Shown: piece after piece, positions 1,433 to 4,400 of the stretch
How the letters are laid out: each line of letters begins with the position of its first letter
Numbering within the stretch: the stretch's first letter is position 1
Origin: Euglena gracilis
Taxonomy: Eukaryota
Length of the DNA stretch: 64,000 nt
Assembly: GCA_039621445.1 (NCBI GenBank)
Contig: CP154954.1
Location: 46,541,847-46,605,846, forward strand
Direction of reading: 5' to 3'
Translations under genes and position numbers: made by a program
The notes under the pieces: generated by a model
What the model was told of the DNA's origin: nothing
The model's database searches: none
Seen by the model: the letters and a program-made list of their open reading frames with translations, nothing else

Positions 1433-1491
1433 CTTGGCAACAGCTGAAGTGTTCTTCAAAGCATCAGCCAAATCGGGCACTGTCCACGCAG
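1433..1491 (-). CDS. First exon of a second PsaD-like unit
   Basis: (P)[19 protein letters not shown]; 59 nt and phase 1/0, identical in length and phase to exon 14863-14805. Confidence 0.78.
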
Positions 1492-4400
1492 CTGTTCAGG
1501 GGAGAGAGAAAAAGCAGCAACATCAAAAAGAAAAGCATCCAGAGTGCCACTTAAGCGAAAGGGCAGCCAGAGGATTTTTAAGATCTGGACTGCCTCCCCC
1601 CCCCCCAGGCATCGGAGGACCCACTTTTGAGGGTCAATTTTAGGGACCAAAAAATATTACATGCATTATGTATAATAGAGGCCTCACCCGGCCTGTAACT
1701 CAGGCTCATAGATTCAGTTAATGACGCCGGGGGGGGGGGGGGGGCACTTTTTTCTGAAAACCAAAAGCCACCCACCCATTAGCCGACAATCACCCACCCA
1801 TCCAAAATCCAGCCAAAATCGGTCAAAAACCCTTCAAAAAATCCGGCCGGACCCCCCACCACCTGCCTCATGTCTGCGGAGCTTCTTCCCATGCAACCCT
1901 GGGTCCCCCCCCTCCCACCCAACCCAAATTGGGCTTCCCCGCCCAGGGGCGGGGGGGGGGGCAGGGAAGCCCCAAAAATCGGGCCGTCCCAGGGCATTTC
2001 CCAAAAAAAAATTCGGTCCTTTGCACCGAAACCCATGCCCAGGCAAAAATCTGACCCGTGGCGCACCCCCGGGGAGGGGGGAAGTTCCAGCGGTCCAGTC
2101 CAAAATAATGCATAATGCATGGTTGGAGAAGGTTAAACGAAAGCATGAGAAAAAGAAAAAGAGACAATCCAAATTCCACAAACGTTTTTTGATGCGAAAC
2201 TAGCTCCAACCAGATTCAATTACGGGGGGAACTGCTGCACATACGTTTTGCTGCCTTCTCACCAGTTTCAGCAAACATGGCCACAGCGCCCTGAGGCAAA
2301 AAAAGATGCATGGCATCCTTGCGAACAAAAAGCTGCAACCTCCAAAATGGTAAAATGCAGGGTGCCAAAATGGAGAGGGGGCAAAATGCTCAGACCCATG
2401 CACCAGGATGTCACTATGTTACAGTAAAACCTGGTACATTGATGTTTTCTTCTGAAAGCACTGATCCCCGTTTTTTTTCCTTCATGAAAACCACTTTCTA
2501 AAAGCAAAATCCCAGTGCCTTGCGTTTCGGCACATCGACAGGAAATGGAAAAATCACCTCAGACCCGCCTCAAAAAAATGTTCTGAACTCACACCAAAAT
2601 TGCCCTAAAAAACCACCTGGACCCGCTTTATGGGGGTCAATATGCAAAAAAAAACTCAATTTTTTGCATAGGTGATTCGGAAACTAGAAATCCAGTCGCT
2701 CGCGGCTGAAAAAAAAATTTCGGGAACGGAGCCGAATCATGGTGATAATCCGCCGGTGGCCCCGAGGGGGGGGTTTCCCCCAGGGGTAAGCTTCGCTCTT
2801 ACCCATAAAGGGATAAGAGCTCAGCGACCCCCCACCTAAACCCATACAACCTCCCTATATTGAGCCCTAATCTGAATCCTCCTCCCCCCCCACTAACTTA
2901 AACCCTGCCCAGGTCACAAGCTTAAAAAATCCAACCTGTGGTTTGACGGACAAAAGGATTTTGTTATTGGGGATGGGTAGGAAGGGATTTTTTCAGGTCC
3001 AAAGAGGTCTCCCCACCACCCCCTCAGGCCTCAAGGGGTTCAAGGGACCCACTTCTAGTGAGTCAATTTTGGGGTCGAAAAATTCCGCAGTTTGCTAAAA
3101 GCACCTTTTAAAAAAAACCAAAAATACCCTTGTCGCCAAAACAAAATGCCTAAAGATGCCTTAAAAATACCAAAAAATTCAAGGTGTGGCTCACAGAGTT
3201 TTCTCCAGCAATCAAAAAATGAAATCACAAAATGATTTCTGGCATTCTTAAAACTTGCCCATCCCACCAAAGCTCAAAAAAACGTACATTTTTTCAAAAA
3301 GGCTCAGATCTTTTTTTTTCATGGCACCTTTAAAAACACTTCCTGGTACACGGTCAAAGCACAAAAAGAAATGGTTTCAATTGCACCAGTGAAATAATCA
3401 AGAAAGTTGGTTCGATGCGGAGACCGTCCTTCAAAAAAAAAGTAATTTGAAATCTCAAAAAAAAAACCTTGCCTTGAAAAATTCCTTAAATTCTGGACGG
3501 AAAATAGTGTCGAAAAATGATGCTTGCTTGGAAAATGGCGGCGAGCCCCAGCAAGCAAAAAGCAAACCTCAGTCTGCACATCCTTTGGTGTAGTGCCAGT
3601 GAACTTCACTGAAGCAGGCTCTTTGTTCTCACCAATGCTGCGGGGGTTGTGGTTGGCCTTGGTGCGGCCCTGGTTGACCTGATGATGAGCAGGTGTAGAG
3701 GAAAAACAAAAAACGCCTGACGGACAACCACTGATACTGGTTATTATCAGGCTTCTTTTTACCAACCCGGGGGAGGGAGGGGTTGGTGAAAAGACTCAGT
3801 ATCATATATGGCCAGAGCACACCCCAAGCGCTTTTGGCGCCGGGGGCAGGGTTCGATATAAGGACAGGTGGGGGGGGTCCAGACCCCCCCTTTGGGCCAG
3901 GAGAGGGGTTCGATATAAGGAGAGGGGGGGGCCGGGCCCCCCCCCCCCCGGGGGCCAGGAGGGGGGTGGGGGGGACACCACCCCCCCCACCTGAACAGTG
4001 GCGCGGTCAGGGTGACCAGGGAATTTCTTAAGGACCCCCCGGGGGATGGGGGGGGTCCAGCCTCCGGCTGTCAAAAAGGCTGCTGGCTGGGTTTGGGCTG
4101 CTGGCTGGTCACCCCCGCCGGGCGGGGGGGGGGAGGGGGGGGGTCCGGGGCTGGAGCGGGCTGGGCTGGGCTGGGTCGAGGAAAAACAAAATTTTCTAAC
4201 ACATTTTTGCCATTTTCGACATTTTGATGGGTGGAGCCAGATCAAGGCTGGGGGGCTGTGATGGAGGGGCTGTGATGAGGGGGAAAAATGCAGGGATAAA
4301 TGACCTGGACAGCCCAGTTGGCTGGCCGGCCTGCGGCCGGCTGGCCCGGCCTTCGGCCGGCTGGCCCGGCCGGGCTGGACCCGACTTTATTTCAGTCGAC

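Follow-up and report, generated by a model that had tools for sequence, protein, structure and literature searches.

The PsaD subunit of photosystem I in Euglena gracilis is very probably made as a three-unit polyprotein

Polyprotein precursors and PsaD in Euglena

In the RbcS precursor of Euglena gracilis, decapeptides connect eight small subunits (Chan et al. 1990, described in PMC4938576), and the decapeptides are described in passages of PMC4938576 as being excised in the stroma. The same passages give the RbcS linker of E. longa as NMAAMTGEKD, with Asn at position 1 where E. gracilis has Gly. LHC (LhcE/LhcbM) polyproteins are likewise multi-unit, with 10-residue linkers and units that may differ from one another, and their released units assemble on photosystem I (PSI) (Koziol & Durnford 2008, as reported by papers that cite it). 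Plastid presequences of class I carry two TMDs spaced by a '60 ± 8 rule', according to passages of PMC6242988.

PsaD of Euglena has been described from the other end, as a mature subunit. Passages of the structure papers (including PMC13066549) show a single PsaD in Euglena PSI, with an N-terminal helical extension, and in three of these papers, PMC13066549 among them, the extension docks LhcE antenna proteins. Here we analysed a window of 64,000 nucleotides of E. gracilis DNA, in which a sequence-only reading had proposed that PsaD is encoded as a polyprotein of two linker-joined units.

Exons of psaD in the window and their joints in RNA

We are highly confident that two-fifths of the nuclear gene psaD of E. 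gracilis, its 5′ part, lie in the window, as ten exons on the minus strand running from 15400 to 1433. The RNA evidence consists of raw reads of runs X21 and X24 together with contigs of X18, a run that is only presumed to be RNA. All nine joints between the exons were found in X21 (read counts given below refer to this run unless stated otherwise), and also in X24 (13–26 reads each) and in X18 contigs; the DNA run X1 showed none of the nine. X24 is a stranded run, and its reads on the exons had their first mate on the plus strand only, which is the expectation for minus-strand RNA. Joined at these positions, the ten exons amount to 1050 nt, a length divisible by three.

The first three exons, all on the minus strand like those that follow, encode the targeting region. 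Exon 1 (15161..15400) begins at the mRNA start, 15400, which an AG at 15402-15401 immediately precedes; upstream of 15401, one X18 contig carries letters that are not those of the window. The ATG of exon 1 (15394-15392) opens 78 codons, which cover most of the transit region and, at aa 7-31, a hydrophobic segment resembling a signal peptide. A joint at 15113^15158 (cut +3, exon end 15161; 198 reads) leads to exon 2 (15003..15116, 114 nt), which encodes a second, stop-transfer-like hydrophobic segment (aa 88-110), has the C-terminal end RKPRSEE and is flanked on both sides by GT..AG introns. The 40-nt exon 3 (14912..14951; joint 14951^15003, 112 reads) spans the junction of presequence and unit 1, where it encodes the inter-unit linker in a degenerate form.

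Mature unit 1 starts in the 59-nt exon 4 (14805..14863; joint 14863^14912, 140 reads) with the first part of a Euglena-specific N-terminal extension. Exon 5 (10076..10120, 45 nt), which had been missed in the exon set originally proposed for unit 1, encodes 15 residues equal to residues 134-148 of the public protein P0001 (see below), and is joined to exon 4 by 223 reads (10119^14804) and to exon 6 by 297 (10025^10075). In exon 6 (9873..10026, 154 nt) the extension ends and the PsaD core begins, up to YELPT. The core continues in exon 7 (6676..6863, 188 nt; joint 6860^9870, cut +3, 354 reads), which ends in GVFPEK and is 98% identical to P0001 residues 201-262; this exon alone matches cyanobacterial PsaD chains in the PDB with E-values of 2e-30 or better. 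Exon 8 (3568..3678, 111 nt; joint 3675^6673, cut +3, 480 reads) supplies the 37 C-terminal residues of unit 1, ends at a GT donor and, as the sequence-only reading had stated, contains no stop.

Exon 9 (2245..2290, 46 nt) encodes the inter-unit linker, 15 residues plus one base, with 100% identity to P0001 residues 300-314, and exon 10 (1433..1491, 59 nt) encodes the start of PsaD unit 2, with 100% identity to P0001 residues 316-334. Exons 8, 9 and 10 lie on the minus strand exactly where they had been predicted. Mapping of RNA reads across them, the check proposed with that prediction, revealed both joints: exon 8/9 (2289/2290^3567/3568, cut +1) in 188 X21 reads, 18 X24 reads and an X18 contig, and exon 9/10 (1491^2245) in 199 X21 reads, 15 X24 reads and an X18 contig, each over an intron that is GT..AG on the minus strand. 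The linker exon and the 59-nt exon of unit 2 are thus part of the mRNA. The predicted correspondence of the latter (1491-1433) with the 59-nt exon of unit 1 (14863-14805) was also seen, the two being equal in length and phase. Since only 31 of their 59 bases are identical, the duplication of the units must be old; the link from unit 1 through the linker to unit 2 does not rest on this resemblance, because the joints were read in RNA.

Joint counts in X21 fall from 480 at exon 7/8 to 188 at exon 8/9. The higher count may include reads from unit 2 that fit the conserved exon 7/8 joint too, and a minority of transcripts may end, or be trans-spliced, near 3568 or 2290; among the best-supported X21 loose ends listed, the smallest of which has 188 reads, none lies at 2290.

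The gene extends past the first base of the window. Beyond 1433, 260 X21 reads and one X18 contig enter letters absent from the window, which by hand translation give AKGIATQLPT, equal to P0001 residues 335-344. The candidate next exon from 1383 (ACASAFTG...KATRDE) therefore had to be dropped: the reads leave the window at 1433, and positions 1-1432 contain no match to P0001.

A precursor of three PsaD units

P0001 (UniParc; UniRef name 'Photosystem I reaction center subunit II, Euglena gracilis') is a protein of 698 aa composed of three PsaD units, with exactly the unit 1-linker-unit 2 junction of the window. The Pfam PsaD model (PF02531) matches it in three stretches with 633.8 bits (cut-off 22.4). 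The window's translation matches P0001 at 328 of 334 aligned residues, including 36 of 36 from the linker into the beginning of unit 2, and the six differences per 334 residues mark P0001 as a slightly different allele. Over residues 1-698, P0001 is identical to the PDB deposit for chain 9vfj_D, that is, for PsaD as a subunit of purified E. gracilis PSI-LHCI (passages of PMC12577709); the identity concerns the deposit as such, modelled residues aside.

Cis-spliced reads connect unit 1 with the linker and the linker with unit 2, and so place at least two PsaD units in one open reading frame. Units 2 and 3 lie outside the window, and what speaks for their genomic continuity with this copy is P0001, together with the run-on reads. 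Taken together, these data make it very probable that the PsaD precursor is a polyprotein encoded on one mRNA, with one presequence followed by three linker-joined PsaD units. The proposal of a PsaD polyprotein with a decapeptide-type linker is thus borne out, by the spliced reads and by the identical junction in P0001; of the two-unit architecture, the succession unit 1-linker-unit 2 stands and the number of units does not, as P0001 has three. The suggestion that unit 2 is very divergent and perhaps neofunctionalised turned out to be wrong. Unit 2 is an ordinary PsaD, identical to unit 1 at 152 of 185 residues (82%), and it is the unit to which three one-unit-long deposited Euglena PsaD sequences (9vjs_D, 9uas_D and 9v7t_D) align best. 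Units 2 and 3 are 92% identical to each other, and unit 1 is 78–82% identical to either. Unit 1 differs from the other two mostly in the N-terminal extension, where it has 36 of 53 residues in common with units 2 and 3, against the 49 of 53 that these two share.

The novelty assumed at the outset has to be reduced, as the full precursor sequence is already public (UniParc; PDB entry 9VFJ), and what may be new is the polyprotein nature of PsaD. It is not stated in the main-text passages of PMC13076659, PMC12577709, PMC12965295, PMC13230849, bioRxiv 10.1101/2025.05.07.652572 and PMC13066549, and in the passages of PMC12577709 the word 'polyprotein' is confined to the reference list; the supplements of these papers, or Durnford & Gray 2006/Koziol & Durnford 2008, may state it.

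Hydrophobic segments occur at the N-terminus of the precursor only, at aa 7-31 and 88-110. Separated by 56 residues, they fit the class-I pattern of presequences with its two TMDs and the '60 ± 8 rule'. The two inter-unit stretches are identical, 15 residues long and without a hydrophobic segment, leaving a single presequence and none between units. The decapeptide within them equals the E. gracilis RbcS linker, as deduced from the text of PMC4938576, at six of ten positions (M2, A4, T6, G7, E8 and K9).

Within the libraries searched, the polyprotein architecture of PsaD was found in two proteins only, P0001 and P0004. The latter is an environmental protein of 217 aa, in which the C-terminus of one unit is followed by an equal linker and then by a complete terminal unit, with 92% identity over the junction. 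It was the sole match among 13 candidates for junction-bearing proteins of 30-382 aa. Long proteins (383-1222 aa) gave 18 matches, and the 17 others cover at most 24% of P0001, as single PsaD domains inside other gene models. Representative proteins gave 439 matches, and the 14 fetched from the 150 listed contained no further polyprotein. P0146, the one long match with two PsaD stretches that was read among these, was rejected as a polyprotein: the end of one dinoflagellate-like PsaD is followed there by a new presequence and a second copy, the picture of a read-through of tandem genes, each with a presequence of its own. Of the shorter matches with two or three stretches, P0178 was covered. 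A metagenome scan with P0004 returned 593 pattern matches, of which 224 encode a relative. All 80 kept loci match residues 61-217 (the PsaD core) only, at 62–76% identity; none of the 80 covers the linker, and P0004's own contig was not recovered.

Processing, rival readings and comparison with known polyproteins

We propose the following route. Transcription of psaD into one mRNA would give a precursor of ~714 residues, headed by a single plastid-targeting presequence of class I, in which ~56 hydrophilic residues separate a signal-peptide-like segment from a second hydrophobic one, and continued by three PsaD units of ~185 residues, each with the Euglena-specific N-terminal helical extension. 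Beyond base 1 of the window, the minus strand would be expected to carry exons for AKGIATQLPTFWELR, the remainder of unit 2, the second linker, unit 3 and a stop after STPKDL. From the likeness to RbcS and LHC we infer cleavage at the linkers: the stromal protease that acts on the RbcS/LHC decapeptides would cut three M-x-A-E...K junctions (presequence/unit 1, 1/2 and 2/3). The cuts would release three non-identical mature PsaD proteins, and PSI would take one PsaD per complex. The arrangement probably arose by intragenic duplication, with units 2 and 3 as the younger pair.

An alternative to a polyprotein would be tandem psaD genes that are expressed separately, from a polycistronic transcript cut by spliced-leader trans-splicing, so that units 2 and 3 start at the linker Met (GAVA-M-FAE). 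Euglena does trans-splice its mRNAs, and the contig with extra 5′ letters at exon 1 would fit, as would the deposit 9vjs_D, which is one repeat period from linker Met to next linker (P0001 304-506), as though it had been read as an ORF. However, the 188 and 199 X21 reads that join exons 8/9 and 9/10 in cis are similar in number to those of other joints, there is no stop between the units, a unit begun at the linker Met would lack a presequence for targeting, and 2290 is absent from the loose ends listed for X21 (best-supported only). We regard separate expression as extremely improbable. It is also very improbable that the three-unit protein stays uncleaved and acts as a tandem-domain PsaD. 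Such behaviour has a parallel in the RbcS polyprotein of E. longa, which is not detectably processed (passage of PMC4938576, quoted in PMC6242988), but the PsaD linkers belong to the kind that RbcS loses by excision, passages of the structure papers show one PsaD whose free N-terminal helical domain binds antenna proteins, and two extra 20-kDa domains on PSI go unreported in those passages.

A further question is whether the copy in the window is alive. Its exon 3 contains an in-frame TGA (14919-14917), the window reading GTT TGA where P0001 has V G; were this the true sequence, translation would end after the presequence, and PsaD would come only from other copies, such as the P0001 allele. 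At least two alleles do exist, because X21 reads split at six exonic sites, 62–74% of them carrying the P0001-type letter and the remainder the window's. At 14918 and 14919, however, the other letter is present in 159 of 159 X21 reads, in 16 of 16 X24 reads, in an X18 contig and in an X1 DNA contig, which gives GTG GGA, i.e. V G. Yet the window's letter at 14945, 26 bases from the TGA, is carried by 43 of 165 X21 reads. Since no read shows TT at 14918/14919 while the window's letter at 14945 is transcribed, TT is most simply an assembly error or private to the assembled strain, and a dead allele appears unlikely. For genome annotation, this means that the window has a stop codon supported by no read, and that P0001, the public protein, is short by the first 16 residues of the precursor.

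A three-unit polyprotein bears on the recent Euglena PSI structures, where one or another of three isoforms may be the mature PsaD. Residue numbering differs between the papers because one deposited PsaD, 9vjs_D, is one repeat period; the one-unit deposits stop within the linker or close to it, at ends chosen by the depositors. Three PsaD proteins delivered at a fixed 1:1:1 ratio could conceivably give distinct PSI populations, with unit 1, whose differences lie mostly in the extension that docks LhcE, serving another antenna arrangement, being discarded or being used elsewhere, an idea that we consider rather doubtful. With three cleavage junctions in a soluble protein, PsaD also offers a simple test bed for the linker protease.

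With PsaD, a PSI core subunit joins the short list of Euglena polyproteins (LHC, RbcS, PGK and EF-Ts). Phosphoglycerate kinase and EF-Ts are plastid polyproteins too, so the route is wider than LHC and RbcS; they are other proteins, EF-Ts with two units, and the passages of PMC6242988 and PMC4938576 that treat them do not name PsaD among the Euglena polyproteins. PsaD resembles the LHC precursors in its several, non-identical units, its 10-residue linker and the predicted destination of the units on PSI; it differs in that LHC units are membrane proteins, with at most five per precursor according to the citing papers. Compared with single-unit PsaD (PF02531; for example PDB 9l0a_D and 6vpv_D), every Euglena unit has the full PsaD core, and among the matches listed exon 7 is 77–93% identical to cyanobacterial and metagenomic PsaD, in agreement with the cyanobacterial affinity of Euglena PsaD reported in passages of PMC12577709. 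Unlike single-unit PsaD, the Euglena units add an N-terminal extension of ~50 residues and are chained. The likeness to RbcS lies in one N-terminal tripartite presequence, repeated mature units in one ORF, a plastid-targeted photosynthesis protein, and a linker sharing M at 2, A at 4 and T-G-E-K at 6-9. In contrast to RbcS, PsaD has three units instead of eight, and these are 78–92% identical rather than near-identical; its conserved inter-unit stretch is longer, 15 residues, and equal at both junctions; and PsaD is a PSI core subunit of the stromal face, for which the release of units, demonstrated for RbcS, is proposed here.

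A single spliced psaD mRNA across the unit junction

The nuclear psaD gene lies on the minus strand, with exons at 15400–15161 (exon 1, ATG at 15394), 15116–15003 (exon 2), 14951–14912 (exon 3), 14863–14805 (exon 4; 59 nt, 20 residues), 10120–10076 (exon 5; 45 nt, 15 residues), 10026–9873 (exon 6), 6863–6676 (exon 7), 3678–3568 (exon 8), 2290–2245 (exon 9) and 1491–1433 (exon 10), which total 1050 nt, or 350 codons. Exon 8 encodes the PsaD C-terminus (37 residues) and ends at GT instead of a stop; exon 9, 46 nt between cag and gtatgt, encodes 15 residues plus one base; exon 10 (59 nt) finishes a Pro codon and adds 19 residues. 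An earlier sequence-only reading, which proposed that PsaD is encoded here as a polyprotein, had placed exons 8–10 exactly and had rightly found the C-terminal exon to lack a stop, but had overlooked the 45-nt exon 5. Eight of the nine introns have GT..AG borders. The remaining one, 14864–14911 (48 nt), has no GT..AG placement (TT..AG as listed, GT..CA or AG..TC when shifted by 1–2 ambiguous bases) and looks like the non-conventional introns of Euglena.

We mapped RNA to positions 1–15600 using raw reads from two runs of different studies (X21 and X24), the X18 contigs, tentatively taken as RNA, and, for DNA, the contigs of X1. The RNA data skip all nine psaD introns; the DNA run skips none. 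X21 reads crossed the joints 15113^15158 (198 reads), 14951^15003 (112), 14863^14912 (140), 10119^14804 (223), 10025^10075 (297), 6860^9870 (354), 3675^6673 (480), 2289^3567 (188) and 1491^2245 (199), and each joint was also covered by 13–26 X24 reads and an X18 contig. The 480 reads at the exon 7/8 joint may include reads from unit 2, the second PsaD copy, because we take this joint to be conserved between units. First mates of the stranded run X24 fell on the plus strand only, as expected for minus-strand RNA. The sequence-only reading had offered two joints as its test, 3568 to 2290 and 2245 to 1491; both are thus seen directly, in 188 and 199 X21 reads.

The mRNA exits the window at 1433, where 260 X21 reads and one X18 contig share a run-on sequence (agreement 0.99) that, reverse-complemented and translated by hand, reads AKGIATQLPT. 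No exon matching it was found in window positions 1–1432, and the next exon suggested earlier, at 1383, is unused; the reads leave for another exon. There is, then, a single spliced mRNA with a single presequence, whose frame runs on without a stop from unit 1 into unit 2. The cis-spliced reads across unit 1, linker and unit 2 contradict a separate mRNA for each unit, and translation begun at the linker Met would give a unit that lacks a targeting signal. Minor transcripts may exist that end close to 3568 or undergo trans-splicing at 2290; loose ends of X21 reads were listed for the best-supported places only, the lowest having 188 reads.

At the 5′ end, about 10 letters of one X18 contig have no counterpart in the window; they are T-rich on the RNA strand, with sequencing adaptor beyond, and stand directly upstream of an AG at 15402–15401, 6 bases before the ATG. 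In this single contig the letters upstream of 15400 are consistent with trans-splicing of the Euglena spliced leader.

A three-unit precursor and two expressed alleles

A search of a 5.8-billion-protein collection with exon 7, in which longer proteins were requested, returned P0001, a public E. gracilis protein of 698 aa, named photosystem I reaction center subunit II in UniRef. Pfam PsaD matches it in three stretches (633.8 bits), and exon 7 matches residues 201–262, 402–463 and 603–664. Its first junction, a 75-residue stretch, equals window exons 8–10 plus the run-on exon of the reads, and the second junction has the same 15 residues as the first. The window translation is identical to P0001 at 328 of 334 aligned positions, an agreement that marks the window as E. 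gracilis or a strain very near to it. The polyprotein proposal thus stands: RNA joins unit 1, linker and the start of unit 2, and P0001 carries the same junction within three units. The same 698 residues were deposited as PDB chain 9vfj_D, 9VFJ being the structure of PMC12577709. Both begin LAAGALF, without the first 16 residues, which window positions 15347–15394 encode after the ATG.

X21 reads were mixed at seven exonic sites, with about 62–74% carrying the P0001-type letter and the remainder that of the window: 6752 (395/606), 14945 (122/165), 15166 (169/235), 15172 (197/264), 15214 (179/236), 15322 (211/300) and 15362 (190/269). At five of them P0001 and the window also differ in the encoded amino acid. 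Two psaD alleles or copies are expressed. The window copy has one real oddity that could mark it as a dead allele: exon 3 reads GTT TGA at 14920–14915 (TGA codon 14917–14919), where P0001 has Val-Gly. However, at 14918 and 14919 159/159 X21 and 16/16 X24 reads have the other letters (GTG GGA), as do both contigs, X18 and X1 (DNA). Since the window's letter at 14945, 26 bases off, occurs in 43/165 X21 reads and TT in none, the window-type allele is expressed without the stop. The simplest reading of the TT is an error in the assembly or a change that only the assembled strain has.

Units 1 and 2 are identical at 152/185 positions (36/53 in the N-terminal extension, 116/132 in the core), units 1 and 3 at 143/183 (36/53 and 107/130), and units 2 and 3 at 169/183 (49/53 and 120/130); what sets unit 1 apart from the others is therefore found mostly in the N-terminal extension. 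Only 31 of 59 bases agree between the two 59-nt exons, indicating that the first duplication is old. A PsaD exon-6-like segment of at least 35 residues in P0247, a gene call on genomic DNA, is unlike all three P0001 units, pointing to further psaD unit variants in Euglena or a relative. The sequence deposited as 9uas_D likewise differs from every P0001 unit, at about 20 positions.

P0004, a protein of 217 aa on an environmental contig of 1000 bases, runs from the end of a unit through the same linker into a full final unit that closes with TPKEL; over the junction it is 92% identical to P0001. It probably comes from a transcript of a related euglenid, because its frame is unbroken across what in E. 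gracilis is at least six exons. No PsaD polyprotein was found outside euglenids, which is weak evidence because the libraries searched hold few euglenid sequences: 17 of 18 long-protein matches cover at most 24% of P0001, no polyprotein was among 14 examined of the 150 representatives listed, and each of the 80 metagenome loci retained carries a lone PsaD gene of cyanobacterial type.

Repeats and retroelements around psaD

The psaD introns are filled at about 3800–5800, 7800–9400 and 10400–13500 by G+C-rich, homopolymer-rich repeats. In the DNA run they have a summed word depth of 1e5–1e6, against about 150–900 in exon-bearing bins, so these are very high-copy dispersed repeats. Upstream, at about 15800–15930, lies a short tandem repeat, one plus frame of which reads repeated GPAKAPSS. 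The gene adjoins a retroelement-rich stretch. Open frames at 39012–44273 (+, 1753 aa) and 51159–56255 (+, 1698 aa) match reverse transcriptase, RNase H, integrase and chromodomain, by sequence the make-up of Ty3/gypsy chromovirus-type retrotransposons, and a third frame, 18607–20691 (+), matches reverse transcriptase. Residues 236–288 of the first frame (39717–39875, +) match Pfam Dam, a DNA N6-adenine methyltransferase (39.5 bits, cut-off 28.1, E 5.8e-10), an unusual passenger in the N-terminal part of a gypsy-type element.

Probable import and processing, and known Euglena polyproteins

The N-terminus has two hydrophobic segments (aa 7–31 and 88–110) with 56 residues between them, which fits the class-I presequence pattern of euglenophytes (PMC6242988). 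The presequence/unit-1 junction, RKPRSEETY(A/S) plus 14 residues, is a degenerate copy of the 19-residue inter-unit sequence. By analogy with RbcS and LHC, the precursor would be imported by the class-I route and cleaved at three linker-type junctions, releasing three PsaD isoforms of about 185–190 residues, one of which would bind per PSI complex. The structural descriptions examined contradict a three-domain PsaD that stays uncleaved: structure papers, including PMC13066549, describe one PsaD per PSI, whose N-terminal domain, two to three short helices, docks LhcE antenna proteins. That domain corresponds to exons 4–6 of each unit.

Three PDB PsaD sequences are one unit long, and all align best to unit 2. 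9vjs_D (203 aa) equals P0001 304–506 with one change, a full repeat period that starts at one linker Met and closes with the Met-Phe of the following linker; 9uas_D (193 aa) aligns to 313–504; 9v7t_D (186 aa), deduced by hand from density according to its paper, aligns to 318–496. These ends, being chosen by depositors, give only a hint that mature PsaD may span roughly KPAW to TEGAVA.

The precursor sequence is already public (UniParc, PDB 9VFJ). The main texts of the Euglena PSI papers PMC12577709, PMC13076659, PMC12965295, PMC13230849, PMC13066549 and bioRxiv 10.1101/2025.05.07.652572 do not, in the parts available, term PsaD a polyprotein, though supplements may; nor do the available parts of PMC6242988, PMC4938576 and PMC13013580, while Durnford & Gray 2006 or Koziol & Durnford 2008 may.

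The RbcS linker of E. longa is NMAAMTGEKD, differing from that of E. gracilis solely by Asn for Gly at position 1 (PMC4938576). With the E. gracilis linker derived from this wording, the PsaD decapeptide has 6 of 10 positions in common with it (M2, A4, T6, G7, E8 and K9). RbcS linkers are described as excised in the stroma after import, with a thiol peptidase suspected (PMC4938576). Euglena RbcS and LHC are well-known polyproteins, as are PGK and EF-Ts (PMC6242988, PMC4938576); a PsaD polyprotein is real and helps in reading the new PSI structures, and in Euglena it is unsurprising.
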